Below are positions 21,801-59,234 of a DNA stretch of 64,000 nt, piece after piece; the first letter of the stretch is position 1, and each line of letters starts with the position of its first letter. The translations under genes and the position numbers were made by a program. The stretch comes from an uncultured Actinomycetes bacterium (GTDB lineage: Bacteria; Actinomycetota; Thermoleophilia; Solirubrobacterales; 70-9): the NCBI GenBank assembly GCA_963724745.1, contig CAVRVU010000002.1, positions 94,714 through 158,713 of the forward strand, read 5' to 3'. Under the pieces are notes generated by a model. That model was not told the origin of the DNA, made no database searches, and was given only the letters and a program-made list of their open reading frames with translations.

Positions 21801-24800
21801 AAGGCGACCGGGCTGGCGCCGGTGCCGTTGGCCTCGAGGGTGCCCTGGACGACGACTTCGCCGCCGCAGTTGGCGAAGGCCTTGACGATCGTGCCGGCGC
21901 CGAGGGTGAGCTTGATCCCCGGCGGGATCGTCAGCGAGCCGCAGCCGCCGGAGAGCACCGGCACCAGGTTGCCCGACCAGGGCAGCGAGGAGCTGACGGC
22001 GAGGGTGTCGGCGCCGAGCCGCACCCCGTTCAGGCCGTTGGCCGAGCCCGAGTTGCCGTCGAGGGCGCCCATGTCGAGGGAGGCGTTGTAGATGCTGATC
22101 GCGTTGCCGGCGACTTTGGTGACGGTGTTGCCGGTGAGCGTCGGGATGCCGAGCGGGGAGTTGACGGCGATGCCGTCGCCCTGGGCCTTTTCGATCGTCG
22201 AGTTGGTGATCGAGGTGGTGGCCGAGCTCGCCTGCAGGGGCGAGGAGGCGTAGGCGACCTTGACGTGGTCGAGGTCGAGGGTCGGGTTGGGGTTGCCGTT
22301 GCCGGCGGGGCTGGTGTAGATGCCGCCCCAGTCGCCGGCGAGCGGCGCGGTGGCGTTGCCGTCGCCGTTGGTGTCGCCGCCGACGGTGTCGTCGCGCCAG
22401 GAGGTGAAGGCGACCGGGCTGGCGCCGGTGCCGTTGGCCTCGAGGGTGCCCTGGACGACGACTTCGCCGCCGCAGTTGGCGAAGGCCTTGACGATCGTGC
22501 CGGCGCCGAGGGTGAGCTTGATCCCCGGCGGGATCGTCAGCGAGCCGCAGCCGCCGGAGAGCACCGGCACCAGGTTGCCCGACCAGGGCAGCGAGGAGCT
22601 GACGGCGAGGGTGTCGGCGCCGAGCCGCACCCCGTTCAGGCCGTTGGCCGAGCCCGAGTTGCCGTCGAGGGCGCCCATGTCGAGGGAGGCGTTGTAGATG
22701 CTGATCGCGTTGCCGGCGACTTTGGTGACGGTGTTGCCGGTGAGCGTCGGGATGCCGAGCGGGGAGTTGACGGCGATGCCGTCGCCCTGGGCCTTTTCGA
22801 TCGTCGAGTTGGTGATCGAGGTGGTGGCCGAGCTCGCCTGCAGGGGCGAGGAGGCGTAGGCGACCTTGACGTGGTCGAGGTCGAGGGTCGGGTTGGGGTT
22901 GCCGTTGCCGGCGGGGCTGGTGTAGATGCCGCCCCAGTCGCCGGCGAGCGGCGCGGTGGCGTTGCCGTCGCCGTTGGTGTCGCCGCCGACGGTGTCGTCG
23001 CGCCAGGAGGTGAAGGCGACCGGGCTGGCGCCGGTGCCGTTGGCCTCGAGGGTGCCCTGGACGACGACTTCGCCGCCGCAGTTGGCGAAGGCCTTGACGA
23101 TCGTGCCGGCGCCGAGGGTGAGCTTGATCCCCGGCGGGATCGTCAGCGAGCCGCAGCCGCCGGAGAGCACCGGCACCAGGTTGCCCGACCAGGGCAGCGA
23201 GGAGCTGACGGCGAGGGTGTCGGCGCCGAGCCGCACCCCGTTCAGGCCGTTGGCCGAGCCCGAGTTGCCGTCGAGGGCGCCCATGTCGAGGGAGGCGTTG
23301 TAGATGCTGATCGCGTTGCCGGCGACTTTGGTGACGGTGTTGCCGGTGAGCGTCGGGATGCCGAGCGGGGAGTTGACGGCGATGCCGTCGCCCTGGGCCT
23401 TTTCGATCGTCGAGTTGGTGATCGAGGTGGTGGCCGAGCTCGCCTGCAGGGGCGAGGAGGCGTAGGCGACCTTGACGTGGTCGAGGTCGAGGGTCGGGTT
23501 GGGGTTGCCGTTGCCGGCGGGGCTGGTGTAGATGCCGCCCCAGTCGCCGGCGAGCGGCGCGGTGGCGTTGCCGTCGCCGTTGGTGTCGCCGCCGACGGTG
23601 TCGTCGCGCCAGGAGGTGAAGGCGACCGGGCTGGCGCCGGTGCCGTTGGCCTCGAGGGTGCCCTGGACACCGATACTTCGTCCCTGCTGCAGCTTGACGA
23701 TCGCGCCGTCTTCAACTTCGAGCGTCGCCCCTTCAGCTACGAAGACATCGCACGTAACTACATAGTGCTTGGCGAATCTCGGCCCAATCTTCTGGTCCTG
23801 CGATATCTCACCGCAAAGAGAGAGCTCGGGGCTCACCGAGTCCCACGAGTAGGTAGCGCCGGCTGGATCGATATTGCCCGCAGAGTCAACCGCCTTAACG
23901 ACCAGCGCGTGCGGTCCGGGCTCCGGATCGGTGATTTCGTAGGGAGTGGGACACGAGCTCGCGGTCGCTCCATCCAAACTGCATAGGAAGGTCGCTCCCG
24001 AGTCTCCACTCGAGAACTCGAAGCTGACCGGCCCCGGGCCGATGGCTCCTTCAGGGCCATCGCCTTTCGTCGTCTGCGGCGGCGCCGTGTCGACCGTCCA
24101 GCTCGCTTGAGCCGGGCTGGCGTCGGTGTTGCCGGCGGGGTCCTTGGCCCGGACTTCGACGCTGTGAGGACCGTCGGCGAGTGGGTTGTAGGTCTTGGGG
24201 CTTGCGCATGGCTGCCAGCCGGCGGCGTCGAGGTTGCATTCGAAGCTGCCGGCCGCCTCGCTGGACGTGAAGGACAAGCCAGACTGCGGGTTGTTGGTTG
24301 GGCTCGCAGGACTGCTTCCGATCGTCGTCTGCGGCGCCGCCGTGTCGACCGTCCAGCTCGCTTGAGCCGGGCTGGCGTCGGTGTTGCCGGCGGGGTCCTT
24401 GGCCCGGACTTCGACGCTGTGAGGACCGTCGGCGAGTGGGTTGTAGGTCTTGGGGCTCGCGCATGGCTGCCAGCCGGCGGCGTCGAGGTTGCATTCGAAG
24501 CTGCCGGCCGCCTCGCTGGACGTGAAGGACAAGCCAGACTGCGGGTTGTTGGTTGGGCTCGCAGGACTGCTTCCGATCGTCGTCTGCGGCGCCGCCGTGT
24601 CGACCGTCCAGCTCGCTTGAGCCGGGGTCTGGTCTATGAGTTCGCCGGCGACCGCCCTCACCTCGAATTCATACGGGCCGTCCGCAAGCGAGCTGTACTG
24701 AGCAGGGCTGGCGCAATTGGACCAAGCGGAGCCAACAAAACTGCACTCGAAGGTGGCGCCAGGAGGGTTCGAGTGAAATGAAAAGCTGCTGTCCCTTTCC

Positions 24801-25288
24801 CTAATCGGACCCGATGATCCGCTATCGATCAGGGTGTCAGGGGGCGTCGGGGTGGGGGGAGCTGGGCTTGGTGGAGGCTGCGGCGTCGAACCGGTTGCGG
24901 GAGGGGTCGGAGGAGAGCTCGGGTTCTCCGGACTCTCGCCTTTTTCTTTCGCCTTTGCCTTCGCTCTGCCGATGCAACGCTGTTTGGCTTTTCGTTGCTT
25001 CTTACTTTTTCCAGAAAATTTCTGCTGGCATTTCTTGACCTGAGCTTTGACGCTTGAAGCCGAGGATCTAGCCGTCGGAGTCGTTGCCCCAAACGTTGCG
25101 CCGACGCCGATCACTGCGATCGCAGCAAGAACTGCACACAGCACAACGAGAGAACGCTTGGATAAATCGGTGGTCTTTCGAAATCCCCTGCCCTGAGTCA
25201 CCAGCCCAAGAACGCACAACGAGCGTCCCCTCTTTTGCCGTTCAAAGAATTTTGCAGCTGCACTCTCCGGTCCCTTGCCCTGCTTCAC
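18893..25288 (-). CDS. Giant secreted multidomain protein. Order: signal/anchor, Lys-rich segment, Pro-rich linker, 4 Cys-pair Ig-like domains, 7 right-handed beta-helix modules (202 aa each), C-terminal cutinase-type alpha/beta hydrolase.
   Basis: Single uninterrupted 2131-codon ORF. TM LVVLCAVLAAIAVIGVGA. FECNLDAAGWQPCASP domains. The module GTLEANGTGASPVAFTSWRDDTVGGDTNGDGNATAPLAGDWGGIY occurs 7 times. Cutinase nucleophile elbow GYSQGA with flanking Cys. The start codon is uncertain (GTG at 25288 or GTG near 25201). Confidence 0.85.
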   Translation of the reverse strand: MKQGKGPESAAAKFFERQKRGRSLCVLGLVTQGRGFRKTTDLSKRSLVVLCAVLAAIAVIGVGATFGATTPTARSSASSVKAQVKKCQQKFSGKSKKQRKAKQRCIGRAKAKAKEKGESPENPSSPPTPPATGSTPQPPPSPAPPTPTPPDTLIDSGSSGPIRERDSSFSFHSNPPGATFECSFVGSAWSNCASPAQYSSLADGPYEFEVRAVAGELIDQTPAQASWTVDTAAPQTTIGSSPASPTNNPQSGLSFTSSEAAGSFECNLDAAGWQPCASPKTYNPLADGPHSVEVRAKDPAGNTDASPAQASWTVDTAAPQTTIGSSPASPTNNPQSGLSFTSSEAAGSFECNLDAAGWQPCASPKTYNPLADGPHSVEVRAKDPAGNTDASPAQASWTVDTAPPQTTKGDGPEGAIGPGPVSFEFSSGDSGATFLCSLDGATASSCPTPYEITDPEPGPHALVVKAVDSAGNIDPAGATYSWDSVSPELSLCGEISQDQKIGPRFAKHYVVTCDVFVAEGATLEVEDGAIVKLQQGRSIGVQGTLEANGTGASPVAFTSWRDDTVGGDTNGDGNATAPLAGDWGGIYTSPAGNGNPNPTLDLDHVKVAYASSPLQASSATTSITNSTIEKAQGDGIAVNSPLGIPTLTGNTVTKVAGNAISIYNASLDMGALDGNSGSANGLNGVRLGADTLAVSSSLPWSGNLVPVLSGGCGSLTIPPGIKLTLGAGTIVKAFANCGGEVVVQGTLEANGTGASPVAFTSWRDDTVGGDTNGDGNATAPLAGDWGGIYTSPAGNGNPNPTLDLDHVKVAYASSPLQASSATTSITNSTIEKAQGDGIAVNSPLGIPTLTGNTVTKVAGNAISIYNASLDMGALDGNSGSANGLNGVRLGADTLAVSSSLPWSGNLVPVLSGGCGSLTIPPGIKLTLGAGTIVKAFANCGGEVVVQGTLEANGTGASPVAFTSWRDDTVGGDTNGDGNATAPLAGDWGGIYTSPAGNGNPNPTLDLDHVKVAYASSPLQASSATTSITNSTIEKAQGDGIAVNSPLGIPTLTGNTVTKVAGNAISIYNASLDMGALDGNSGSANGLNGVRLGADTLAVSSSLPWSGNLVPVLSGGCGSLTIPPGIKLTLGAGTIVKAFANCGGEVVVQGTLEANGTGASPVAFTSWRDDTVGGDTNGDGNATAPLAGDWGGIYTSPAGNGNPNPTLDLDHVKVAYASSPLQASSATTSITNSTIEKAQGDGIAVNSPLGIPTLTGNTVTKVAGNAISIYNASLDMGALDGNSGSANGLNGVRLGADTLAVSSSLPWSGNLVPVLSGGCGSLTIPPGIKLTLGAGTIVKAFANCGGEVVVQGTLEANGTGASPVAFTSWRDDTVGGDTNGDGNATAPLAGDWGGIYTSPAGNGNPNPTLDLDHVKVAYASSPLQASSATTSITNSTIEKAQGDGIAVNSPLGIPTLTGNTVTKVAGNAISIYNASLDMGALDGNSGSANGLNGVRLGADTLAVSSSLPWSGNLVPVLSGGCGSLTIPPGIKLTLGAGTIVKAFANCGGEVVVQGTLEANGTGASPVAFTSWRDDTVGGDTNGDGNATAPLAGDWGGIYTSPAGNGNPNPTLDLDHVKVAYASSPLQASSATTSITNSTIEKAQGDGIAVNSPLGIPTLTGNTVTKVAGNAISIYNASLDMGALDGNSGSANGLNGVRLGADTLAVSSSLPWSGNLVPVLSGGCGSLTIPPGIKLTLGAGTIVKAFANCGGEVVVQGTLEANGTGASPVAFTSWRDDTVGGDTNGDGNATAPLAGDWGGIYVVSGGSAHLLGTTLEYASTALYVADGNDVAIHGAILHSTVGVSANTWVDATHVDWGSPSGPAPGGQGTPIQGDGPMVVPWVGWSPPPMPAVTPQPQSPSGDCATALFVGVRGSGEAPLVGETYSSTESANMGSRIPGIFFAFREEFEKLSPGSTVRGFGLRYPALPVPGPWGAIFGNSYLEFEESFWEGALDIALGVHQESEACPSEKIVLAGYSQGALAIHLALSELMSSADLSHVSAVVLLADPEARGDDNGVTKWGSAATSADGIYTMAFGHGGTAVIPSSVAGRTIAYCHNNDIVCAPGLGSWTSEHSNYSWSEIEPLGVWAADHAAG
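19893..23666. repeat. Tandem direct repeat, 606-bp unit, about 6.2 copies, apparently identical at the nucleotide level, in frame inside the giant gene
   Basis: Identical translations recur with a 606-nt period in three different frames: the main minus-strand ORF, the plus-strand 1401-aa shadow ORF, and the 125-aa ORFs at 19896, 20502, 21108, 21714, 22320 and 22926. Sequence lines also match by eye. Confidence 0.9.
24068..24625. repeat. Tandem direct repeat, 255-bp unit (85 aa, one Ig-like domain), about 2.2 copies with one visible mismatch
   Basis: CGACCGTCCAGCTCGCTTGAGCCGG recurs at 24091, 24346 and 24601. The only mismatch seen is ggggctTgcgc versus ggggctCgcgc. Confidence 0.85.
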
Positions 25289-25468
25289 GGCGCGGAAGAC
25301 TAACGCCGAACTACGAACCTCGGCTTACTCAGTCGGAGTAATTTTCTGCTTGGCGCTGCAGCCTGTGCCGCCTCGCCCTCGATTGTTCCACGGCCAATAT
25401 CCCGCGGCGATCCCACGGGGCTCAAGCGCGAACACGCGCGCCCGCCTAAAAACAGAAAGGATGTGCGG

Positions 25469-25723
25469 ATGCCCCAACCACGCCGCGCAGGACAACGCAG
25501 AGAACCCCAGGACTTCGGCTGGGTGATCTCCTTCGGCTGCAAAACGACCGGCACCCTCCGTCGCCTCAAAGTCGACACCGACCCCTCCTCCGACACCAGC
25601 CCGATCGAGGTCCCCTGCCCCTGCGGCGAAGCCCACCGGGTAACGGTCTCCCCCTACCGTCGCCGCCGCTCCGCTGACGAGCCCTTCGACCTCGAGGTCA
25701 AGAGCCTCGACGAGCTGCGCTGA
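25469..25723 (+). CDS. Small hypothetical protein (84 aa) with a Cys/His cluster (C..x..CPCGEAH)
   Basis: AAAGGA lies 7 nt upstream of the ATG. The ORF is intact. No recognisable family. Confidence 0.4.
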   Translation: MPQPRRAGQRREPQDFGWVISFGCKTTGTLRRLKVDTDPSSDTSPIEVPCPCGEAHRVTVSPYRRRRSADEPFDLEVKSLDELR

Positions 25724-25753: not shown

Positions 25754-25924
25754 TCAGGGCGAGAGCGGGAGATGTGGTGGGTCGATCCCGAGTAACCGCA
25801 GCAGGATCAGGGCGAAGACGACCGCCACGATCCACATGATCTTGCCGACCCAGTTGTCGAGGTCGGTCTCGACGCTCCAGGACCGATCCGAGTTCGGACC
25901 GCGATTTTGCCGCTCGATCTTCAT
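25754..25924 (-). CDS. Small membrane protein (56 aa)
   Basis: GGGGGCGGAG SD immediately upstream of the ATG. One clear TM (IMWIVAVVFALILLRLLGI). Confidence 0.45.
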   Translation of the reverse strand: MKIERQNRGPNSDRSWSVETDLDNWVGKIMWIVAVVFALILLRLLGIDPPHLPLSP

Positions 25925-26057
25925 CTCCGCCCCCTTCGGACAGCCCATCTTTTTCGCTTTCGACCCAGTTATGCCATGGGATGTCGACCTGGGCCACCCG
26001 AGGCCACCCAAGCCTGACGGAGGAGAACCGAGGCCCACCGGGGGGAGGTGGAGGTGC

Positions 26058-29000
26058 TCAGTCGAGCGAGGCGAGGATGTCCTCGAGCGAGGTGGGTGCC
26101 TCGATGCGTAGCGTCTCGAGCATCTTCCGAGCGGTGCCGATGTTGGCGAACCCGTAGAAGTTGTCGAACGACGAATAGAGCATCCCCTCGAGGTTCTCCC
26201 GGTGGTCCTGGCGCAACCCATACAGCAGGACCATCAGAGCGCGCGGCTGGATCGCCCGGGTCATCGCTCCCGGTCGCGTCAGCTCCCATTCGATTCCCGG
26301 CTGCGGCAGACGCAACGGCACCGCCACACATGGACCCTCGTGCCGGCGGATTGTGTTCAGTTTGGTCCGGTTCAGGTTCCCGCGGATGAAGACGAGAGTC
26401 AACGCGCTCCCATCCGAGGCGATTCGCGCGGCCACCATCCCTTCTGATTCCCGCTTCACCTCCGCCGCGACCTGATGGCCACTGAGCAGCTCGCTGACGG
26501 TGGCGACCAGCTCGTCGCTGCTCGCCGAGTCCATGAGATTGCGCCACGCGTCGGCGTAGAGTTGCCCCTCGGCGCTGGCGATCGACTGGTTCTCGAGATC
26601 CCCCGGAAGCTGCATGTAGCTTTCCTTCGACCGGTTTCTGATCTCTTCGTAGCGCGCCAACGCCCGCTTTCTCACCAGTTCGGGGACCTCCAGGTCCCCG
26701 CGCTTCAGAAGCTCGGCGAGATCGTCCACCCTGCTCAGGCCCTTGCGATGGATGGCGATCAGCGGCTCGCGCCCCAGGCCCTCCAGGTTCAACCGCGCGA
26801 GGTGGCCCAGCCACAGCGGGACGCCGTAGGTGCTTTCGTCGGAGAGAACCGACAAGCGCTCCCGCGCTTGCGCGTCGTACTCGAGCAGTTCGCTGGCGGC
26901 GCCGAGGACATAGCCGATGCGCTCGCCCAGCTGCTCCACGTCGGTGACCGAGAAGGGGATCGCCGGATCCGGCTCCCGCTTCTTCCGTCGCACCCTGCGC
27001 CGCGGCGTGGTGATCGAGTCGAGACGCAGTTTGATCTCGCGAAAAGGCTGCGCATTGGACCACTCGTAGGCAACGGCCGCGCGCAGGATCGCGATCGAGA
27101 AGTCCTTCACCGCGAAGTACTGCTCGTTTCCGGTTTCCTCGACCAGCTTCGTGTCGGTGATCCAGCGCTCGAAAGCCTTGGGCATCGGGGTCGGAGCGCG
27201 GTCGACGAGCTCCGGGTCCGGCTCGTAGAACCGCAGTTCGCCCTTTTCGGAGGGCAGCGCGAGCCGCCACCTTTTCGCCACCGCCCGCCTCACCCGCTGG
27301 ACCGGGTGGCCGTACATGGCCGCATAGAGCTGCACGTGCTTGATCACATGGTCCCGTATCTCGGGGTCCTGCTCGTATGGACGCCTCCACGCCAACCACT
27401 TGCTCTGCAGGGTCCTCCTCACGCTCGGGTCCTGCGCGGCGAGGTGAAGCAGGGGAAGCTCGGCAATTCCCTTGGTGCAGGCGGCAGCGACCCTCCGCAC
27501 GTGGAGCGAGCTGTCGAGCGGCAGCGCCGATCGCGCTATCGCCATTCCCAGCTTCGTCACCTGGAGCTGCTCCGGACGCTCCGGAACCTCCGCCACGACC
27601 TGGGCGTCGATCAAGCGCTCCATCACGGCTTCGCCGTCGGGAGCGGGCCGATCCGGCTCGGAAGCGGGAGCCGGCTCCATCAGCTCACGCTGCTCGAGGT
27701 CCTCGAGCAGCTCCTCCGCCTCTACCTGTCCGCCCCACGCTGCCCACAGGGTGTTGGAGATGATGCGGTCGATCTCCTTCATCAGCGCCTCTCTCGAGCG
27801 TGGGCGTGGCTCCACCGCGAGCGCCCGCAGCACCAGGCCGCAGAGGCTCTCGTGGCCGGTCTCCGGATCCGCCAGGGCCGACCACAGGGCCTCCTCAGGG
27901 ACCTCCTGCTCCACCCAGTGCCGCCAGGCCGGATCCAGTTCGGTCACCCGTGGCGCGTCCTCCGGAGACGCCAGCGACCGCGATGGGAAGCGAGGGTCGA
28001 TGACGATGTAGACGTTGCCGTGGGGCTGGCGCTTGCCGAGTCTCCCGGCGCGGCCGCCTCGGTTCTTGACCCGACCGACGGGGATCAGTTCTTCGCTTCC
28101 CCGCCAACGCTGCGTCAGGTCGACCACCACCACGTCGCTGGCCGACAGGTTCACGCCTTCGGCGAGGGTGTCGGTGCAGACCAGAACCCGCACCAGCCCG
28201 TTGTCGAACTCGTCCTCGATCCAGCGACGGAGGTGCATCTGCAGCGTGCGGGTGTGGTAGGTCACACCGCTGAGGAAGCCACGCTGGACCTCCCTGCGCC
28301 AATGGTTGTCCTCGGTCCAGAGGAACTCGTCGTAGCGCTCCCTCCTCTCCTTGTCGGAAAGATCGAGGTCGTCGGCGTAGCGTCCAATCCTCCACGGGTT
28401 GGGATTGCGCGGCAGCCGGCCCATGGGGTCCTGGAGATCGAGGCACTCCCGCAGGAGAGTGGCCACCTCCCGCGCCCGGTCGCGATCGCGCACGAAACAA
28501 AGGACCCTGCGATCGGCGACGTCGTCGCTGGCCAGCAGCTGGCAAACCTGCAGGATCGGCAACGTCAGCCGGAGGTTGGAGATCCGCTGGCGCAACGAGT
28601 CAGGCCAGCGATTGGGGAGCGGCCCGAGCGGATGAGGGGTGATGGTCTCGTCGACATGTTCCTGTTGACCTCCACTGCGCTCACCGTTCGCACCCAGGTC
28701 GCCCCCCGGCCGAGCGGCGGAGATCACCCGCGTACGACGGCTGACTCCGTCGACTACGTGGAGGCGCAGCTCGGTGGGCCGCGAGGAGACCTCGACCATG
28801 TGTTTCACGCCAAGCCAGCGTCGCGCGGTTTTGGTCGACTCCGGGGTCAGGGTCGCGGAGAGGGCGACGATCGGGATGCGCCGCGGGCGCATGCGCAGGA
28901 TCGTCAGCAGCGCCTCCAGGTTGGCCCCGCGCTGATCCTGCGCAAGGTTCTGAAACTCGTCGACGACAATCAGGCCAACCCGGTTGAGAACGTCGGTGCC

Positions 29001-30071
29001 GCTGTAGACCAGATTGGCGAGCTTCTCGTACACGCAAATCCCCACGTCGTACTCGCCGTGGGCAAGCGCCTCGTCGTACTCGCGGTCGTCCGCCGACCCC
29101 GCGACCACCCGCCAGTCGGCGTCGTCGGCGGCCGTCCATTTGAGCCAGCGCCGGTGGTTCTCACGCACCATCGTCTTGGTCGGGACGAGGATCAGGGCCC
29201 GGGACTCCTGGTGCCTGCGCCTGGCGGCGTAGACGGTGTGCGCAGCCGCGACGCGCCCCACGTGAGTCTTGCCGCAGCTCGTCGGCCCGAGCACGAGCAT
29301 CGACTCCCGCGCCTCGACGATCTTGGGTATGCGGGGAAATGCACAGGCCTGTGCCTCGGTGATGATCGGCTCGAAGTCCGAGGCGGTGGGAGTGGCGTCT
29401 TCCCGGGGATCCAGGTCCAGGGCCATCTTCAGCGGCAGCTCGTTGAGCAGCATCTGCCGAGCGTCATCGTCGGAGCCCCGCGGGCAGCGGACGCGCTCGG
29501 CCTCCAACGCGTCGAGGGCCCCGAGGATCGAGAGCGCGATCCGTCGCAGCTCCGGCACGGCGGCGGCGACGAGAGCTTTCGGCTTCCCGGTCCGCCACAT
29601 CCGGCTGGTCAGCTCCTGGATCACCGTCTTCGAGGACCGATCCAGCGCCTCGTACACCGCCGGCTGGATGTTCCCCAGGACCTCCCCGACCTCGTGAAGG
29701 TCGCTCTCCTTCGTCAGGTAGTAGCGCCAGCCCAAGACGGCATGCAGACCGTGATCCTCAGGGCGCAGGCGGTACAGGGCGTCCTCGCTGAGCGGCACGA
29801 GGATGCCCTGGATGAAATCTTCCAGCTGCCCCAGGGGATCGTCGCCGTCCTCCGAGACGACCACGCGCAGCCGTGGCACGCGGTCCAGGTCGAGCTCACC
29901 ACTCCGGAGCGCGTCGGCGAGCGCGTTGAGATCTTCGACCAGCTCCGGCCAAAGCCGCATCCACATCGTCTCCCGGACGCTTTCCTGCGCGCCCAGCTTC
30001 TTCGGCGGCACCGCCGGCGAATCCAGCGAATGCCGTCCCACCTCGGGGATAAGCGAGATCTCAGTCGTCAA
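26058..30071 (-). CDS. Large SF2 helicase, Hel308/Ski2-like core, with an unassigned ~250-aa N-terminal domain and an unassigned ~150-aa C-terminal domain
   Basis: Motif I GPTSCGKT, Ia LILVPTK, II VVDEFQ, III SAT, V VCTDTLAEGVNL, VI GGRAGRLG. The post-core region reads like WH/ratchet/HhH (QVTKLGMAIARSALP, LLHLAAQDPSV, YGVPLWLGHLARLNLEGLGREPLIAIHRKGLSRVDDLAEL). SD GAGAGGAG lies 7 nt before the TTG start. Confidence 0.85.
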   Translation of the reverse strand: MTTEISLIPEVGRHSLDSPAVPPKKLGAQESVRETMWMRLWPELVEDLNALADALRSGELDLDRVPRLRVVVSEDGDDPLGQLEDFIQGILVPLSEDALYRLRPEDHGLHAVLGWRYYLTKESDLHEVGEVLGNIQPAVYEALDRSSKTVIQELTSRMWRTGKPKALVAAAVPELRRIALSILGALDALEAERVRCPRGSDDDARQMLLNELPLKMALDLDPREDATPTASDFEPIITEAQACAFPRIPKIVEARESMLVLGPTSCGKTHVGRVAAAHTVYAARRRHQESRALILVPTKTMVRENHRRWLKWTAADDADWRVVAGSADDREYDEALAHGEYDVGICVYEKLANLVYSGTDVLNRVGLIVVDEFQNLAQDQRGANLEALLTILRMRPRRIPIVALSATLTPESTKTARRWLGVKHMVEVSSRPTELRLHVVDGVSRRTRVISAARPGGDLGANGERSGGQQEHVDETITPHPLGPLPNRWPDSLRQRISNLRLTLPILQVCQLLASDDVADRRVLCFVRDRDRAREVATLLRECLDLQDPMGRLPRNPNPWRIGRYADDLDLSDKERRERYDEFLWTEDNHWRREVQRGFLSGVTYHTRTLQMHLRRWIEDEFDNGLVRVLVCTDTLAEGVNLSASDVVVVDLTQRWRGSEELIPVGRVKNRGGRAGRLGKRQPHGNVYIVIDPRFPSRSLASPEDAPRVTELDPAWRHWVEQEVPEEALWSALADPETGHESLCGLVLRALAVEPRPRSREALMKEIDRIISNTLWAAWGGQVEAEELLEDLEQRELMEPAPASEPDRPAPDGEAVMERLIDAQVVAEVPERPEQLQVTKLGMAIARSALPLDSSLHVRRVAAACTKGIAELPLLHLAAQDPSVRRTLQSKWLAWRRPYEQDPEIRDHVIKHVQLYAAMYGHPVQRVRRAVAKRWRLALPSEKGELRFYEPDPELVDRAPTPMPKAFERWITDTKLVEETGNEQYFAVKDFSIAILRAAVAYEWSNAQPFREIKLRLDSITTPRRRVRRKKREPDPAIPFSVTDVEQLGERIGYVLGAASELLEYDAQARERLSVLSDESTYGVPLWLGHLARLNLEGLGREPLIAIHRKGLSRVDDLAELLKRGDLEVPELVRKRALARYEEIRNRSKESYMQLPGDLENQSIASAEGQLYADAWRNLMDSASSDELVATVSELLSGHQVAAEVKRESEGMVAARIASDGSALTLVFIRGNLNRTKLNTIRRHEGPCVAVPLRLPQPGIEWELTRPGAMTRAIQPRALMVLLYGLRQDHRENLEGMLYSSFDNFYGFANIGTARKMLETLRIEAPTSLEDILASLD

Positions 30072-30192
30072 CTGCCAGCTCCTCTCTAAAGAACGACAGG
30101 AGTATCGAGAGAACGGGTGGAATGGTCCACCTGAGGGCGCCTGAGGCCGGCTGAGCCGTTACCGTCTGGCTTCGTGGAAGACGGGTGATGAT

Positions 30193-30220
30193 GGAGAGCC
30201 CTGAAGAGTCAGGGCTCTCC
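30193..30220. terminator. Perfect 12-bp stem / 4-nt loop hairpin GGAGAGCCCTGA-agag-TCAGGGCTCTCC
   Basis: Read directly. It begins 9 nt after the stop of the micro-ORF. No U-tract follows, which is common in high-G+C actinobacteria. Confidence 0.55.
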
Positions 30221-30228
30221 TCAGCTGA

Positions 30229-30324
30229 CTAAAGATGCCTGGCCACCTTGCTGCTCGAGCTCCATGCTGCCTGTACTTCGTCAGCGTCAACGAGTAACGC
30301 TCCCGTGGTCTCGTCGGTCAACAT
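30229..30324 (-). CDS. Candidate micro-ORF (31 codons) MLTDETTGALLVDADEVQAAWSSSSKVARHL
   Basis: Near-consensus SD AAAGGAGG lies 6 nt upstream of the ATG, and the hairpin follows the stop. No homology evidence is possible here. Confidence 0.3.
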   Translation of the reverse strand: MLTDETTGALLVDADEVQAAWSSSSKVARHL

Positions 30325-30468
30325 CAAACGCCTCCTTTTAGGTCCGGCCGGAGTCATATAGCCGAATATCCGACAGCGCGAGCCGACCGCAGAAAAGCCG
30401 GCGTACGCGCTGCCAATAGGCATCGGGGTGCCGATACATGGCGCCTACTCCGGATAATCGACCAAGGG

Positions 30469-31368
30469 TTAGAAGCTGCCGCCAGAGGTTCTCTGGCGCC
30501 ATTTCTCGGCGATATAGGTCACGGTATGAGCTTCCTTGCCCTGGTCGCGACCGTGCCTCTGGGCCTTCCGAACATAGTTCTTAAGCTGCTCGACGTTCGA
30601 AGCCAGGACCTCGACGACCGAATCGAACTGCCCGACGGCGACCGCCGCGGTGAGGAGGTGGATGGAGCCCCTGCACTCCTTCCAACCGGCCACCTCGCGG
30701 AAGACGTCGACGAACTCCGGCTTCTTGCGGTCGCCGAGGGCCTGGATGAAGATCGTGGCCAACCGGTAATCGCGCACCAGGGTCTCGTCGACGACGAAGT
30801 CGCGGTCGACGTACATAGGCAGATCGTCGCGGAGCAAGATGGTCTCGAGGGTCCGCAGAGCCTCGGCCTTGAACAGGTCGTCGGCGTATTCGAGCACGCT
30901 GACGTTCTCGGGGGTGGTGAGCCGGACGACGACGTCATGCCACCCGAAGACGATTCCCGAACGCATCGCCACGCCCCCCAGCCGTTTGTGGAAATGGAGC
31001 CCGTAGGGGTCCGTCGGCCCGGTCAGCAACAGCACGGCCCTGCGCATCGAGATCTTCTCTTCGTGGATCCGCGCGGCGACGGTGGCGGCCAGCCAGTTGC
31101 TCTCATGACCGGTGGCCTGCGACAGCTCGCTCCGCTCCTCCCCGCTGAGGTCCAGGGCCGCGGCGACCTTGAGCAGGGTTCCGCGGCGCACCTGCGGAGG
31201 CTTGCCGCTGCGAGGCTCGATGATGCTCTGGACCCTCTGGTCGTCCAGACCCGCCTCTTTGCTTACCGAGGCCCAGTCCGATCCGTCCATCCCCCGGCTG
31301 CGGAAGCACTCGGCGAGAACATCGCCGACGTCTCGCGGGCCGACGACAGGTGGCTTGGTGGAAGTCAT
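30469..31368 (-). CDS. XRE-type HTH regulator fused to two tandem beta-alpha-beta-beta-alpha-beta (Lrp/AsnC-RAM or ACT-like) small-molecule-binding modules
   Basis: HTH: DWASVSKEAGLDDQRVQSIIEPRSGKPPQVRRGTLLKVAAALDLS. Module 1: RAVLLLTG...HDVVVRLTTPENVSVLEYADDLFKAEALRTLETILL. Module 2: LATIFIQAL...FDSVVEVLASNVEQLKNYVRKA...HTVTYIAEKW. The fold assignment is inferred from the sequence pattern. Confidence 0.6.
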   Translation of the reverse strand: MTSTKPPVVGPRDVGDVLAECFRSRGMDGSDWASVSKEAGLDDQRVQSIIEPRSGKPPQVRRGTLLKVAAALDLSGEERSELSQATGHESNWLAATVAARIHEEKISMRRAVLLLTGPTDPYGLHFHKRLGGVAMRSGIVFGWHDVVVRLTTPENVSVLEYADDLFKAEALRTLETILLRDDLPMYVDRDFVVDETLVRDYRLATIFIQALGDRKKPEFVDVFREVAGWKECRGSIHLLTAAVAVGQFDSVVEVLASNVEQLKNYVRKAQRHGRDQGKEAHTVTYIAEKWRQRTSGGSF

Positions 31369-31462: not shown

Positions 31463-32680
31463 TCACCCGCCAAGGACCAGCCAGGAGTGCTTCGCCTCGT
31501 CGCCGAGCCAGATGCGATTGACGGCGCGCACGTGGAAAGCCTTGCGCCCCGGCCGCAGGCGGGCGTAGCGTTTTGGTGAGGTGCAGGGTCTCCACCTGCC
31601 GAGCTTCTGCGGCACCCGCTCGCCGCTCAGCCGGCAGACGTAGTCGACGCCCTGCGTCTTCGAGTGGAAGCGGAAGACCGCGGATCGCTTCGTCGTCCTC
31701 CGACCCACCGTGGCGGAAAGGTGCGGGCGGGCGGGCGCGACGTCCGGCGAGGCGCCGTACCACTGGGTGACGAACTGACCGTCAGCGGTGAATTTCTGCA
31801 CCCTGGCGCGGCTTTCATACGGGTACGGTTCGGCCCGGTCGGCGACGTAGACGTACCCCGCTGGATCGGTGGCAATCGAGGTCGGGGTGAGGAAGCGGCC
31901 CTGGGCGCGTCCCGGTTTGCCCCATGAGCCGAGGAGTGCACCTTCCGCGCTGAACCTCTGAACGCGGTCGTTGGGGGTGTCGACGACGTAGACCTCGCCG
32001 GCGGCGCTGGCGGCGATCCCGTAGGGATAGACGAACTGGCCGGGACCGGAGCCGTAGCCGCCCCACTTGGTGACGAAGGTGCCATCGGCCGTGAAGGCCT
32101 GGATCCGGTTGCCGTAGGTGTCGGCGACGAAGACGGAGCCGGAGGGGCTGATGTCGAGCCCCCAAATTTCTCCGAACTGCCCGTCTCCACGACCGCCCGC
32201 ACCCCATTTGGACAGCAGAGCCCCTTCGGCGGAGAAGCGCAGGATTTCGTGGGGGCCCGCGAGGTAGACGGATCCGTCGGCGCCGACGGCGAGGTCGCGG
32301 CCACCCGCCGCGCTCCACTGGCGGAGGGTCTCACCGCCGGGGCCCAACACGTAGATCGTGTCCCGCTGCCCATCGGCGACGTAGAGGTTGCCGGCGGCGT
32401 CGGTGGCGATGTCCCGCGGCTCAAACGGATTGCCAGACAGGGCGAAGCTGCCCACGTCCGCCAGCAGCTTGCCGTCGCTGGAGTACTGCTGAACCGAGCC
32501 GCTGTGCAGTGGGTCCGAGAGATACACGTGGCCGGACCCATCGGCCGCCACCGAGAGCGGAATCGGCTGGAAGCCGATCGAGGCGTGCGCCGGCCCAGCC
32601 GCGGCGCCGACGCCCACGGGGCCGGCGAGGGCGACGAAGATCGTGAGCCCGGAGATCGCGATCCGCATAGCGACTGACAT
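31463..32680 (-). CDS. Secreted NHL-repeat six-bladed beta-propeller protein with a C-terminal Cys-pair Ig-like domain
   Basis: Signal peptide IAISGLTIFVALAGPVGVGAAAGPAHA. Repeated GQF..P.GIA.D..G.VYV.D..N.RIQ.F units. C-terminal YVCRLSGE...WRPCTSP. The 812-aa ORF in the track over-extends upstream. Confidence 0.85.
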   Translation of the reverse strand: MSVAMRIAISGLTIFVALAGPVGVGAAAGPAHASIGFQPIPLSVAADGSGHVYLSDPLHSGSVQQYSSDGKLLADVGSFALSGNPFEPRDIATDAAGNLYVADGQRDTIYVLGPGGETLRQWSAAGGRDLAVGADGSVYLAGPHEILRFSAEGALLSKWGAGGRGDGQFGEIWGLDISPSGSVFVADTYGNRIQAFTADGTFVTKWGGYGSGPGQFVYPYGIAASAAGEVYVVDTPNDRVQRFSAEGALLGSWGKPGRAQGRFLTPTSIATDPAGYVYVADRAEPYPYESRARVQKFTADGQFVTQWYGASPDVAPARPHLSATVGRRTTKRSAVFRFHSKTQGVDYVCRLSGERVPQKLGRWRPCTSPKRYARLRPGRKAFHVRAVNRIWLGDEAKHSWLVLGG

Positions 32681-32764
32681 CAGGTCAGATCGTAAACGCA
32701 CGATCACACCTCGACCACCATCACCTCGTCCCCCCGAGCGCGCCACCTGTTGGAGAATCGCCCG

Positions 32765-34018
32765 ATGGCGTCCGGCCCCGAATTCGACCTCAGCGCGAAA
32801 CAGGCGCGGCGCCTCGCGATTGCCGCGCAGGGCCTGGCGCGGCCGCGGCCGAACGGGCGGGTGGACGCCAGGCACCTGCGGCGGGCAATCGACGACGTCG
32901 GTCTCCTGCAGCTCGACTCGGTCAACGTCCTCTGCCGCTCCCACTACATGCCGGTCTTCTCGCGCCTCGGTCCTTATCCGCGGGCAGCCCTGGACCGGCT
33001 GGCATGGCACGGCGACGGGGGAGGCGCGAAACCCGGGCGGGCGGGGCGCCGGGACCTGGTCGAGTACTGGGGCCACGAGGCCTCGCTGCTGCCGGTCGAG
33101 TTGCAGCCGCTGCTGCGCTGGCGGATGGCGCGGGCCGACGCGCTGGCCTGGAAAGGCGTGGCGCGGGTGGCAGCCGAGCAGCCGAAGCTGCTCGAGTTCG
33201 TCCTCGACGTGGTGCGGGAGCGCGGGCCGATCCGGGCCTCGGAGCTGGCGGCCAAGGGGCGGCGGCGGGAGCCGCGGGAGATGTGGAGCTGGAGCGAAGA
33301 GAAGACCGCGCTCGAGTACCTGTTCTTCGCCGGGCGGGTGTGCGCGGCGCGGCGGGTCAACTTCGAGCGGCTCTACGACCTGCCCGAGCGGGTCCTGCCG
33401 CAGTCGGTCCTCGAGACGCCGACGCCCACGCAGGAGGAGGCGCAGCGGCAACTGCTCCTGATCGCGGCCAGGCGGCTGGGGGCGGCGACCGAGGCCGACC
33501 TCGGCGACTACTTCCGCCTCCCCCGCGCCGAGTCGAAGGCCCGAGTCGCCGAGCTGACCGAGGACGGCGGCCTCGTGCCGGTCCGGGTCGAGGCCTGGCG
33601 ACAGCCGGCCTACCTCTCGACCGAGCGACCGGCGGGCCTGCGCCGCGCCGCGTCGGCCCGTGCCCTGCTGACCCCGTTCGATTCCCTGGTCTGGGCGCGC
33701 GAGCGGACCGAGCGCATCTTCGACTTCCGCTACCGGATCGAGATCTACGCGCCGGCGCCGAAGCGCGTCTACGGCTACTACGTCCTCCCCTTCCTCCTCG
33801 GCGACCGCCTGGTCGCCCGGGTCGACCTCAAAAGCGACCGGCAGGCGGGCGTCCTCCGCGTTCGCGGCGCCTTCGCCGAGCCGCACGCCGACCCCGCCCA
33901 CGTCGCCGCGGAGCTGGCCGCCGAACTACGGCTGCTCAGCGCCTGGCTCGAGCTCGACAGCGTCTCGGTGGCGCGCAAAGGGGACCTCGCGACGGCGCTG
34001 CGCAAGGCGCTCGCCTGA
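32765..34018 (+). CDS. YcaQ/AlkZ-like winged-helix protein (DNA interstrand-crosslink glycosylase family, DUF1006)
   Basis: LSAKQARRLAIAAQGL...VGLLQLDSVNVL.RSHYMPVFSRLG...FDFRYRIEIYAPAPKRVYGYYVLPFLLGDRLVARVDLK matches my recollection of the family. A TTG at 32750 is an alternative start. Confidence 0.75.
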   Translation: MASGPEFDLSAKQARRLAIAAQGLARPRPNGRVDARHLRRAIDDVGLLQLDSVNVLCRSHYMPVFSRLGPYPRAALDRLAWHGDGGGAKPGRAGRRDLVEYWGHEASLLPVELQPLLRWRMARADALAWKGVARVAAEQPKLLEFVLDVVRERGPIRASELAAKGRRREPREMWSWSEEKTALEYLFFAGRVCAARRVNFERLYDLPERVLPQSVLETPTPTQEEAQRQLLLIAARRLGAATEADLGDYFRLPRAESKARVAELTEDGGLVPVRVEAWRQPAYLSTERPAGLRRAASARALLTPFDSLVWARERTERIFDFRYRIEIYAPAPKRVYGYYVLPFLLGDRLVARVDLKSDRQAGVLRVRGAFAEPHADPAHVAAELAAELRLLSAWLELDSVSVARKGDLATALRKALA

Positions 34019-34078
34019 GCGGAGCGGAACTCTCGGATTATTTGCAAGCGCGGACGGGGAAAGTTAGGGTCGGCTCCC

Positions 34079-34843
34079 ATGGGAACCGACCCGGCGCTGG
34101 CGGCTTACGAGGCTTTCGCCGCCGTCTACAACGACTTCACCCACTCGAACGACTACGAGATGTGGCTCGGCCAGGCGCTGCTTCCCGAGCTTCGCAAGCA
34201 CGGTCTACGGGAAGGCGGCAGCGCCCTGGACGTTGGCTGCGGGACCGGCCGAGCATTTCAGCCGCTTCTGCAGAGGGGATGGCAGGTGCAGGGATGCGAT
34301 CTCTCGCCGGCCATGCTGGAGCTCGCCGCCCAGGAGGGAGGCGACTCGGTGCCGCTGCAGGTCGCGGACATGCGGGAGCTGCCCCGTCTAGGCGGCTTCG
34401 ACCTCGTCCTCTCGCTCAACGACTCCGTCAACTACCTGCTCGGCGACGATGACCTCGTCGTTGCGCTTGCCGGAATGAAGGCGAACCTGGCGGAGGACGG
34501 CCTCCTCCTCTTCGACGTCAATTCCAGCTCGACGTACGCGACCGGATACGCCGAAACGCGAGAGGTCGAGCACGACGGCTCGCGCTGGACCTGGACGGGC
34601 CGGGGCGAAGTCGCGCCGTCGGTCTTCGAAGCCGAGATCAGCGGCGATCGGATCGAGCCGATCAGCCATGTCGAGCGCCTCCGGCCCGAAGCGGAGGTGC
34701 TGGAGGCAATGCGAGCCGCTGGACTCCAACCGCTGGCCACCTATGGCATGAGCGAGGCCGACGGGCAGGTCGTACTGGCCACGCCGGATGAACAACGCGA
34801 TTACAAGCTCATCTTCATCGGCGCCGCCACTTCGGCCGGCTGA
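34079..34843 (+). CDS. Class I SAM-dependent methyltransferase
   Basis: ALDVGCGTGRAFQPLLQRGWQVQGCDLSPAML (motif I plus acidic loop). Confidence 0.85.
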   Translation: MGTDPALAAYEAFAAVYNDFTHSNDYEMWLGQALLPELRKHGLREGGSALDVGCGTGRAFQPLLQRGWQVQGCDLSPAMLELAAQEGGDSVPLQVADMRELPRLGGFDLVLSLNDSVNYLLGDDDLVVALAGMKANLAEDGLLLFDVNSSSTYATGYAETREVEHDGSRWTWTGRGEVAPSVFEAEISGDRIEPISHVERLRPEAEVLEAMRAAGLQPLATYGMSEADGQVVLATPDEQRDYKLIFIGAATSAG

Positions 34844-34866
34844 GCTAGGGCTAGGCTAGGCAGCAA

Positions 34867-35256
34867 GTGTCCAAGCCGACCCTCATTCGCGATCGCGCCG
34901 AGAACACCCAGGTCGTGCTCGTCGTCATCGTTCCCCTCCTCTTCGGCGCGGGCGTCGGCGTCGTCCTCGGTATCTCGGCGGGCTTCTACTGGGCCCTCAT
35001 CGCCGTCGCCACCCTCGCCGCCCTGCTGTCGGGCCTCGAGCACGGCGAGGTCCAGGAGGCCGCCGAACGCGGCGCCGTCGCCGGAGCGGCATTCGGCCTC
35101 GGCATCCTCGCCGCGCATCAGCTGGCCGGCACCGACGCCAAGGTCTCCCTCGGCAGCGTTCCGGCGTTCCTGATCGTCATCGACGCGTTCGCGGGCGCGC
35201 TGCTGGCAGCGCTGGGATGCCGGCTCGGCAGGCGCAGGAGCGCCGCCCGCGCCTGA
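34867..35256 (+). CDS. Small integral membrane protein (3-4 TM)
   Basis: Hydrophobic segments VVLVVIVPLLFGAGVGVVLGI, ALIAVATLAALLSGL and AFLIVIDAFAGALLAAL. High GC3. Confidence 0.6.
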   Translation: MSKPTLIRDRAENTQVVLVVIVPLLFGAGVGVVLGISAGFYWALIAVATLAALLSGLEHGEVQEAAERGAVAGAAFGLGILAAHQLAGTDAKVSLGSVPAFLIVIDAFAGALLAALGCRLGRRRSAARA

Positions 35257-35257
35257 C

Positions 35258-58779: not shown

Positions 58780-59234
58780 ACCAGAGGATTGGGGTGGCCG
58801 CCTAACGAGCGTCGCGCATCGCCAAGATGAAGGCCCGATCGGAGGCGTCATAGCGATAGAGCAGGAGCATCCACGACCAAGGTCCGAGGACGAACGTGCT
58901 CGACGCGTCGCAGACCGTCCTGACCCCTGACGAGAAGCTGGCGGGCGAAGGCAGAAACGGGATAGGGCCTGGCCTGTACGGGACGCCGACAGCTCGACGT
59001 GCCAGCGCCACCGAACCCGTGCGAGCTCAAAACGCGGTGTGTCCGGGCGGAGTCGAGTCCTCCATCGATGGGTCGACCTCACGGGTTCGGTCCCGCAAAT
59101 CGGGATGGGTCAGAAAGGCGTCCACCAACGCCCTCGGTCCCCCGATGCAAGTCCACTCGTCGTCCCACGAGATAGCCAAGCCACGCCCGACCGTCCTTGC
59201 TGCGCCAGGGCCCTACCTTTTTATCGCCCGCCAT
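58780..59234 (-). pseudogene. Probable tyrosine-integrase remnant (N-terminal arm-type segment, then frame-broken and truncated)
   Basis: MAGDKKVGPWRSKDGRAWLGYLV resembles actinobacterial integrase N-termini (..R.KDGRW.g.v). It starts 25 nt downstream of the tRNA-Arg fragment. Only about 450 bp remain, split over several frames. Confidence 0.35.

Follow-up and report, generated by a model that had tools for sequence, protein, structure and literature searches.

Hel308 helicases occur in archaea and metazoa, and their full architecture has been reported to be absent from bacteria (Tuck et al., PMC12278908). In the Hachiman defence system, the protein HamB is a Ski2-like sensor; its nuclease partner is bound by an extra N-terminal helical bundle and set free when DNA damage is sensed (PMC12278908). 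Modular conflict systems dependent on nucleoside triphosphates (NTPs), in which effectors or EAD adaptors can be swapped, have been described by Kaur, Burroughs, Iyer and Aravind in 2020 (PMC7159879). Here we describe the gene of a 1337-amino-acid helicase and its surroundings in a 64,000-nucleotide stretch of DNA from an uncultured Actinomycetes bacterium of the order Solirubrobacterales (assembly GCA_963724745.1, contig CAVRVU010000002.1, positions 94,714–158,713). This whole stretch is referred to as the window, and L and P numbers denote the related loci and proteins used for comparison. As judged from its matches, the helicase is akin to Hel308 and to HamB and is a member of neither. It is best read as belonging to a candidate family of helicase sensors in defence that has not been described before, is related to Hel308 and HamB and would use swappable effectors. 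The original prediction for this DNA, made by a model from the letters alone, had proposed an undescribed defence module consisting of a 299-amino-acid regulator, a micro-open reading frame (micro-ORF) with a hairpin, and the helicase. The proposal of an undescribed defence candidate proved credible, with its support lying at the level of the family, which is rare and patchy, occurs as Tn7-like cargo and has relatives with SIR2, Metallophos or EAD1 domains.

Architecture of the helicase

The start codon of the helicase gene is preceded by GAGAGGAG, which contains an AGGAG-type Shine–Dalgarno (SD) sequence, and Met1 is invariant among the full-length homologues. The window has a G+C content of 68% and holds many shadow ORFs. 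The helicase ORF is recognized as the true frame among them because its G+C content at third codon positions (GC3) is 0.86. Eight full-length homologues with 38–70% identity are conserved from end to end. The protein carries the motifs GPTSCGKT (residues 262–269), DEFQ (371–374), SAT (405–407), VCTDTLAEGVNL (631–642) and GGRAGR (672–677). The motif set of superfamily 2 (SF2) helicases is complete (Q, I, Ia, II, III, IV, V and VI) and spans two RecA-like domains, and the key catalytic residues are invariant in the eight homologues. Both the complete motif set and an ORF with its own SD sequence had been predicted, and both were borne out. Pfam recognizes only DEAD (E 6e-22), Helicase_C (E 2e-8) and ResIII, all of them within residues 239–679. 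A profile search of PDB sequences returned ASCC3, Hel308/Hjm, Brr2, Mtr4, PolQ (Pol theta) and HamB. A Foldseek search with the AlphaFold model of residues 1–720 returned the same proteins, Hel308 and HamB among them with E-values of about 1e-17 to 1e-15, and both searches matched the core only. From its sequence, the 1337-residue product is a catalytically intact SF2 helicase of the Ski2/Hel308 type.

The region that follows the core had been read in the original prediction as the winged-helix (WH), ratchet and helix-hairpin-helix (HhH) module of Hel308. This reading is supported by the alignment of a 29-sequence family profile, covering approximately residues 706–1142, with the WH, ratchet and HhH of P0014, a Hel308-like protein with the domains PF21280 and PF14520 (Hhalign probability 82.8%, E 9.4e-6, 309 columns). 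The controls, which comprised HelY-type, shuffled and reversed targets, were negative and all remained below 0.5%. The wider family profile was needed for this result, since a profile of the five sequences of the clade alone gave a probability of 0.7% against P0014, which is not significant. In the AlphaFold2 (AF2) model the predicted local distance difference test (pLDDT) is below 50 for residues 691–1066.

Neither the N-terminal 235 or so residues nor the C-terminal 200 or so could be assigned through Pfam, NCBIfam, PADLOC, PDB or Foldseek, as had been anticipated for both ends of the protein, and these regions are covered by none of the models of Pfam (2025), NCBIfam (2026) and PADLOC (2023). 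In the AF2 model, residues 41–235 of the N-terminal domain are all-alpha and residues 1–40 are of low confidence. The C-terminal region consists of a helical hairpin and an alpha/beta domain at approximately residues 1170–1330 (pLDDT 70–92). This alpha/beta domain has no significant Foldseek neighbour, its best PDB match is Cap4 with an E-value of 0.22, and a viral structure library gave no match. A fused nuclease similar to HamA or Cap4 was considered for the C-terminal domain and rejected as unsupported. The Foldseek E-values of Cap4 and MspJI (0.2–0.5) are not significant, and the region has no conserved D...(D/E)xK or other catalytic motif, its sole invariant polar residues being H1199 and E1208.

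Hel308/Hjm is the best match of the helicase in both Foldseek and the PDB-profile search, and the five-part core architecture of RecA1, RecA2, WH, ratchet and HhH is the same (PDB 2P6R, 2VA8 and 2ZJ2). However, the window protein is about twice as long as Hel308, owing to its alpha-helical N-terminal domain of about 235 residues and its alpha/beta C-terminal domain of about 200. The best NCBIfam matches are the Hel308 models and the ligase-associated DEXH helicases. Those to Hel308 are confined to the core and reach about a tenth of the cut-offs. The score is 100–110 bits against cut-offs of 887–1216 for the Hel308 equivalogs (NF040935 and related models), 57 bits against 850 for TIGR04121 of the Lhr/ligase-associated DEXH group, and 23 bits against 849 for PRK13767. 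In addition, Hel308 is a conserved repair enzyme, whereas the family of the window helicase is bacterial, rare and mobile and includes relatives fused to effectors.

HamB (PDB 8VX9/8VXA) likewise combines a Ski2-like motor with an additional alpha-helical domain at the N-terminus and an additional domain at the C-terminus. Its structure 8VXA was matched by Foldseek with an E-value of 2e-15 over 771 columns at a root mean square deviation of 23.5. The N-terminal domain of the window helicase is modelled as all-alpha, as is the helical bundle of HamB, to which it may be related. HamB has a degenerate WH and a CAH domain with an OB-like barrel (PMC12278908), whereas a WH–ratchet–HhH region is recognizable in the window helicase. 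None of the loci examined has a HamA/DUF1837 gene adjacent to the helicase, and no neighbour in the window or in the related loci matched HamA/DUF1837, so that the predicted lack of such a partner holds. The inferred logic is similar in the two cases, a helicase sensor being coupled to a separate effector. The relatives of the window helicase differ from HamB in carrying the effector in cis, at the N-terminus. The assignment of the window helicase to neither Hel308 nor HamB follows from the unreached equivalog cut-offs, the missing HamA and the restriction of the HamB similarity to the core.

Distribution of the helicase family

Only 8–9 close homologues of the helicase are found in 5.8 billion protein clusters. 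A profile of residues 691–1337, searched against 1.84 billion representative sequences, matched 62 proteins at E ≤ 1e-3, 44 of them at E ≤ 1e-10. Most of the 62 are approximately 1250–1420 residues long and are matched at the equivalent position. These matches indicate a coherent and very rare family, which occurs mainly in Actinomycetota. A profile of the close clade found no member in 185,579 species-representative genomes. The 29-sequence alignment was too divergent for patterns, and an alignment of a distant subgroup was used for the genome scan instead; in the same genomes it found six members, in Streptomyces coacervatus, Arthrobacter, Mycolicibacterium, Nocardia niwae, Cellulomonas chitinilytica and a metagenome-assembled genome of Acidobacteriaceae. 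The contexts of the six all differ, each member being a small insertion between metabolic genes, and one of them (L019) lies near an AbiEii gene. No prior description of the family was found in literature searches or in PADLOC 2023.

The helicase loci share no conserved synteny, and neither ligase nor repair genes are syntenic with the helicase in them. A conserved housekeeping or repair context, which would have spoken against a defence function, was looked for and not found in the helicase loci. The distribution is instead island-like, as the original prediction had suggested might be found: the family is rare and patchy, its members are present or absent between close relatives, and it occurs as Tn7-like cargo and next to defence genes. 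A relative with 26% identity lies within a Tn7-like element with TnsA-like, TniB and TniQ genes (L009:1370-15463, JGI contig Ga0498924_0000061). It stands beside tnsABC-tniQ-type core genes and among unrelated genes, which suggests that it is cargo of this element. Cargo of Tn7 elements is rich in defence systems (PMC8649781). As flanking genes the helicase of this element has a divergent one with an NYN domain, an XRE-type helix-turn-helix (HTH) gene and an unannotated gene of 478 amino acids. In L002, the neighbours are an HKD+Snf2/DrmD-like helicase, a gene similar to type IIG restriction endonuclease/methyltransferases, a mad8-like ATPase and a DDE transposase.

Several members of the family are fused at the N-terminus to domains that score above the Pfam cut-offs, namely SIR2_2 in four members, EAD1 in two and Metallophos, a calcineurin-like phosphoesterase, in one. 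In BLASTP the alignments of these fusions to the window helicase begin at about residues 234–254 and end at about residues 1090–1296 (E 1e-62 to 1e-75), and that of the unfused P0093 begins at residue 87. The fusion domains replace or precede exactly the N-terminal domain of the window helicase, and the distant fused members have the core, the post-core and the C-terminal region in common with it. On these alignments, the N-terminal domain is family-specific and occupies a slot that is filled by SIR2, Metallophos or EAD1 in the relatives. SIR2 is a common NAD+-depleting immune effector, and fused SIR2 domains are known from the defence proteins ThsA, DSR and Avs5. EAD1 is an effector-recruiting adaptor of the NTP-dependent conflict systems (PMC7159879). 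Those systems likewise have a constant NTPase core and a variable N-terminal slot, here with SIR2_2, Metallophos or EAD1. Their core is a STAND, MoxR or GTPase module, whereas that of the present family is a Hel308-type SF2 helicase, and the window's own member differs from them in having no recognizable effector or EAD.

A downstream partner gene for 360–530 residues was considered for the family as a whole and discarded. Only L014 and L018 share one; the downstream genes of the others are unrelated and without Pfam or PADLOC match. The shared gene (L014:14167-15249 in Streptomyces coacervatus, 360 amino acids; L018:13996-15327 in Nocardia niwae, 443 amino acids; E 8e-25) follows the helicase gene with translational coupling, and its product matches neither Pfam nor PADLOC models. 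It may be a partner specific to this subgroup. The neighbour search was redone as BLASTP of individual ORFs after an all-against-all tblastx of the flanks had been swamped by high-G+C noise. The proteins P0011–P0013 are helicases of about 1030 residues with an N-terminal caspase domain (Peptidase_C14), which have the core and WH region in common with the family and lack its C-terminal region. As the C-terminal profile did not retrieve them, they are not counted as members; they look like another lineage of helicase–effector fusions.

Organization of the locus

The region upstream of the helicase gene contains three tandem repeats of 10 bp with the consensus CTC(A/G)GGCGNN (CTCRGGCGNN), which read CTCAGCCGGC CTCAGGCGCC CTCAGGTG. 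Nowhere else in the window does this triple repeat occur, and 0 occurrences are expected by chance. It is also present upstream of helicase homologues with 38–70% amino acid identity (L001, L005, L002/L003 and L008), always on the strand of the helicase gene and nowhere else in 19 loci. The last repeat overlaps the putative −35 hexamer TGGACC. The hexamers of this putative promoter and their spacing are kept in the window, L001 and L005, and the sequence of the spacer varies. A simple consensus scan for promoters and terminators called nothing in the region, and the putative promoter scores 8/12. No regulator gene conserved beside the triple repeat was found. The repeats over the −35 hexamer probably represent a transcription-factor site that moves with the helicase gene, and the helicase itself may bind them. 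The triple repeat would then be a portable, operator-like element. A pattern scan of metagenomes for it gave 46 matches, all of which were unrelated 10-mer minisatellites and none of which encoded a helicase; contigs of this kind (L022–L065, many from samples Ga0115008 and Ga0209092) carry G+C-rich 10-mer minisatellites such as (GATCTCGGGC)n. Further upstream lies a hairpin, which had been proposed and is real. A comparable hairpin of 9–10 bp occurs at the same position in L005 and a weaker one in L001. The hairpin of the window probably shields the helicase promoter from transcription that arrives from upstream.

The helicase gene is followed directly by a gene for a 56-residue protein with one transmembrane segment (residues 29–47, Kyte–Doolittle 2.74). 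Homologues of 55–59 residues are encoded directly 3′ of both helicases with 70% identity, L001 and L005, and the protein is as rare as the helicase clade, with only six clusters in 5.8 billion proteins. Within the closest clade, the gene distribution indicates that the 56-residue gene moves together with the helicase gene. The original prediction had passed over this gene, as well as the triple repeat and promoter at 30101–30155. The helicase gene, the small downstream gene and about 85–160 bp upstream of the helicase start are all that the window has in common with L001 and L005. In L066 (4903–6084), a regulator gene with 83% identity to that of the window is followed directly by the 56-residue gene, with neither helicase nor kinase; the presence or absence of the helicase is therefore polymorphic within one lineage. 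Between the stop codon of the helicase gene and the 56-residue gene, the spacer (25940–26057) holds GTCAGGCTTG GGTGGCCTCG GGTGGCCCAGG, which loosely resemble the CTCRGG repeats. These motifs could be a second regulatory site or a promoter of the small gene.

The gene upstream of the helicase encodes a protein of 299 amino acids, which is annotated publicly as 273 amino acids starting from Met27. The original prediction described it as an XRE-type HTH protein with two beta-alpha-beta-beta-alpha-beta modules that look ligand-binding. Its family does resemble this description, in that among 31 members Pfam matches HTH_26 in eight, HTH_31 in seven, HTH_3 in five, AsnC_trans_reg (RAM) in six and GYD in four; the window protein itself has no Pfam match. 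In the PDB profile search it matched an HTH protein with an E-value of 0.11 and an AsnC-type protein with one of 0.41, both weakly. It is a probable regulator with an XRE-type HTH and RAM/GYD-like parts. Forty-three homologues were found, one of them annotated from a Solirubrobacteraceae bacterium. Their neighbours are housekeeping genes (prfA-prmC-Sua5-glyA; serA-ilvC) or a downstream Ser/Thr kinase gene, with no helicase in these contexts. A tblastn search of the 299-residue protein against all helicase loci matched the window's own copy only, so that the expected co-occurrence of regulator and helicase was not seen. No regulator was found beside the 70%-identical helicase of L001, for which 9 kb of upstream sequence are available. 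The regulator gene also has its own conserved, structured 3′ region. By these comparisons, the 299-residue gene is a neighbour belonging to the backbone and is no part of the helicase cassette.

In L011 and L067, a regulator with 79–81% identity is followed by a kinase of about 757–760 amino acids and a small gene, in place of the helicase and the 56-residue gene. In these two closest relatives the Ser/Thr kinase gene directly follows the regulator gene (L011:7653-10902; L067:384-3702), and this suggests that the regulator–kinase pair is the ancestral arrangement. The genes for ADH, an AlkZ-like protein and the 86-residue ORF are also near the regulator in L011 and L067, in shuffled order. The window DNA can be aligned with both loci past the regulator stop and through the AGGAGG and the start TTG ACC GA... 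of the kinase gene, and the alignment ends at about position 30310. The micro-ORF of the window is preceded by AAAGGAGG, with the SD sequence AGGAGG at 30331–30336, and begins with the codons TTG ACC GAC at 30313–30321. Because the alignment runs through the SD sequence and start of the kinase gene and then stops, the micro-ORF is the orphaned ribosome-binding site (RBS) and first codons of a displaced Ser/Thr kinase gene. Such a stub accounts for its strong SD sequence, its low GC3 (about 0.68 by hand count) and its non-conservation. Upstream of other helicases no conserved counterpart of the peptide is present, no Rfam family matches the region, and the source assembly does not call a gene there. 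A function as leader peptide was considered and rejected, since the peptide is not conserved, no Rfam family is found and the kinase stub explains the feature. Thus, of the predicted micro-ORF with hairpin, the hairpin stands and the micro-ORF does not represent a gene.

Taken together, the kinase in the slot of L011 and L067, the end of similarity just after the kinase start and the restriction of the similarity with L001 and L005 to promoter, helicase and small gene show that the locus is a mosaic, which arose by cassette replacement at a rearrangement-prone spot. The features are listed in Table 1.

Table 1. Features of the helicase locus (positions in the window)
Feature	Position	Strand	Basis
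Gene of 86 amino acids, convergent; backbone flank and right edge of the variable slot	25463–25723	+	DNA identity to L011 and L067
Gene of 56-amino-acid single-pass membrane protein, directly 3′ of the helicase gene	25754–25924	−	Homologues, transmembrane segment
Helicase gene, 1337 amino acids, TTG start	26058–30071	−	ORF, GC3, homologues, Pfam
Helicase C-terminal region, about residues 1143–1337	26061–26645	−	AF2 pLDDT
Helicase post-core region, about residues 706–1142	26646–27956	−	Hhalign of family profile
Helicase motor core, RecA1 and RecA2, residues 239–700	27972–29357	−	Motifs, Pfam, PDB profile, Foldseek
Helicase N-terminal domain, residues 1–235	29367–30071	−	AF2 secondary structure and pLDDT; BLASTP to fused relatives
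Putative promoter: −35 TGGACC (30124–30129), 17-nt spacer, −10 GATACT (30101–30106)	30101–30129	−	Conservation
Three tandem 10-bp direct repeats, overlapping the −35 hexamer	30128–30155	−	Conservation, uniqueness in the window
Hairpin, 12-bp stem, 4-nt loop, no U-tract	30193–30220	−	Fold z = −4.0
Micro-ORF, 31 amino acids; kinase-gene relic and left junction of the cassette	30229–30324	−	Alignment with L011 and L067
Gene of 299-amino-acid protein, probable XRE-HTH and RAM/GYD-like regulator	30469–31368	−	Family-level Pfam matches

The helicase gene, the micro-ORF and the 299-residue gene are all on the minus strand. The predicted gap of about 400 bp with reduced G+C between helicase and regulator genes is confirmed (397 bp, G+C 0.594), and both micro-ORF and hairpin lie within it. 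The claim that the whole block is visibly less G+C-rich than its surroundings did not hold. Its G+C content is 0.663 against a window mean of 0.680 (standard deviation 0.022 among equal-sized windows), 14% of such windows are equally low or lower, and the GC3 of the helicase and 299-residue genes (0.86–0.87) is typical of the genome. The left flank has a G+C content of 0.678. The lower G+C of the block is marginal, and the argument from it is weak. The flanking genes encode a 401-residue NHL beta-propeller protein, an AlkZ-like DNA glycosylase, located 2.7 kb from the helicase gene, the 86-residue product of the convergent ORF and a 2131-residue beta-helix/Big_13/cutinase protein, so that the secreted-protein flanks are as had been described. 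The DNA of the 86-residue gene, whose product has no Pfam match, is 88% identical to L011 11485–11749 and 81% identical to L067 15–256. No terminal direct or inverted repeats were detected around the cassette.

The genes for ADH, the AlkZ-like glycosylase, the NHL protein and the 86-residue ORF (window 31463–36365) have 81–92% DNA identity in L011/L067 with shuffled order and orientation, and the neighbourhood of the block is a rearrangement hot spot. On the other side, the gene of the 2131-residue secreted-type protein (18893–25288, minus strand), with Beta_helix, Big_13 and C-terminal cutinase domains, contains internal tandem repeats of about 606 bp, visible between 20274 and 23465 as identical shadow ORFs with a spacing of 606 bp. 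A repeat of 255 bp with 2.2 copies lies at 24067–24626. At the far end of the window, the segment 58000–64000 has a clearly lower G+C content (0.56–0.64). Its larger ORFs have no Pfam match except one weak Apolipoprotein-like coiled-coil, and a short HicB-like fragment lies at 58887–58949. This segment could be a separate acquired island.

Proposed function and alternative explanations

On balance, we regard it as probable that the helicase gene forms an accessory, horizontally acquired and presumably defensive cassette inserted into an unrelated backbone. The family shows the generic features of defence genes, namely a patchy and mobile distribution, defence-gene neighbours and effector fusions. 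Several observations count against such an interpretation. HamB models are the top PADLOC matches of the helicase (E 4e-26), for the motor core only. The effector-fused relatives are only 27–28% identical and belong to other subclades, and their biology may not transfer. No effector domain was recognized in the helicase's own clade, and Pfam finds no defence genes among its immediate neighbours in the window. Its codon composition is native-like (GC3 0.86), and neither an integrase nor att-like repeats nor a transposase flank the cassette in the window. The structure models were built on 5–6 sequences and are poor for residues 691–1066, the promoter is a putative one deduced from its conservation, and the functional tie of the 56-residue gene to the helicase is uncertain, as this gene persists without the helicase in L066.

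The Hel308-like post-core module, the best NCBIfam matches to Hel308 and ligase-associated DEXH helicases, the native-like codon composition, the AlkZ-like DNA glycosylase gene 2.7 kb away and the lack of a recognized effector in the window clade would all suit a housekeeping helicase of DNA repair or replication restart, a bacterial analogue of Hel308 or Lhr whose terminal domains only tune the choice of substrate. We consider such a role unlikely, since the NCBIfam scores fall short of the equivalog cut-offs by a factor of about 10 (100–110 against 887–1216 bits), the family is extremely rare and patchy and without conserved synteny, close relatives do not have the helicase at the same locus, and other relatives carry fused SIR2, EAD1 or Metallophos domains and reside in Tn7-like cargo or defence islands. 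The mobility of the gene could also mean that the helicase serves the maintenance of a mobile element, in its replication, transfer or recombination, rather than the defence of the host. The patchy presence and absence between relatives, the one relative inside a Tn7-like element and another near a transposase, and the iteron-like 10-bp direct repeats upstream are in line with this explanation. It is nevertheless quite improbable in our estimation, because no integrase, relaxase, replication initiator or terminal repeats accompany the helicase in the window or in most loci. Moreover, the position beside tnsABC-tniQ-type genes in L009 looks like that of cargo, and fusions to SIR2 and EAD1 are a hallmark of conflict systems and not of replication helicases (PMC7159879).

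The three-part arrangement of the original prediction would unite the 299-residue HTH/RAM regulator, the micro-ORF with its hairpin and the helicase in a single defence module that is regulated and co-evolves. It is largely refuted by the distribution. The three features are adjacent and on the same strand, the regulator family does carry XRE-HTH and RAM-like signatures, and the retention of the regulator beside the 56-residue gene in L066 would permit a looser association within the lineage. However, the regulator is absent at all other helicase homologues, including L001 with its 9 kb of upstream sequence, and its own homologues have a kinase gene or housekeeping genes as neighbours. The micro-ORF is a kinase-gene stub, the helicase has its own conserved promoter and repeats, and the regulator gene its own conserved and structured 3′ region. 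A module of this kind is very unlikely.

Under the preferred reading of an acquired helicase cassette, the backbone carried the gene of the 299-residue XRE/RAM-like regulator and, after it, the Ser/Thr kinase gene. A mobile unit comprising the hairpin, the three 10-bp repeats, the promoter, the helicase and the 56-residue membrane protein displaced the kinase gene and left behind only its RBS and first codons, now the micro-ORF. The helicase may act as an ATP-driven, probably 3′-to-5′ DNA-translocating sensor against phages or mobile elements, by analogy with Hel308 and HamB, and would load on exposed single-stranded DNA ends or forks of invading or damaged DNA. The activity of its motor would in turn activate an effector. 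For the fused relatives, this effector would be the N-terminal enzyme, for example SIR2 depleting NAD+, or would be recruited via EAD1. In the window clade, the candidates are the terminal domains of the helicase itself, acting on DNA, or the 56-residue membrane protein; our confidence in any particular one of them is much lower than in the cassette as such.

More tentatively, and short of what we would call probable, the family may constitute an undescribed anti-phage system built on a bacterial helicase of Hel308 architecture, either as a single protein or as helicase plus 56-residue membrane protein. In such a system, the constant helicase and C-terminal domain would sense the ends or forks of invader DNA, and the exchangeable N-terminal slot would deliver the response, through SIR2, a metallophosphoesterase or EAD1 in the relatives. 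The new helical N-terminal domain of the window clade may signal to the 56-residue membrane protein. The helicase gene would bring along a portable operator, the three 10-bp repeats, which might serve autoregulation.

Conclusions

The locus carries a caution for the reading of gene neighbourhoods, since a regulator, a seeming leader peptide and a large enzyme standing side by side can be an accident of cassette replacement and not a module. If the proposed function is true, a Hel308-type branch would be added to the helicase-sensor immune systems, beside Hachiman, Druantia and DISARM, and the full five-domain Hel308 architecture would be present in bacteria, from which it was reported absent by Tuck et al. 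(PMC12278908). The conserved triple repeat of 10 bp would provide a handle on the regulation of a cassette after horizontal transfer. The family would also offer a natural series in which one sensor core is combined with SIR2, a phosphoesterase, an EAD1 adaptor or none of these, and such a series of effector swaps would be useful for studying how the motion of a helicase is coupled to the activation of an effector.

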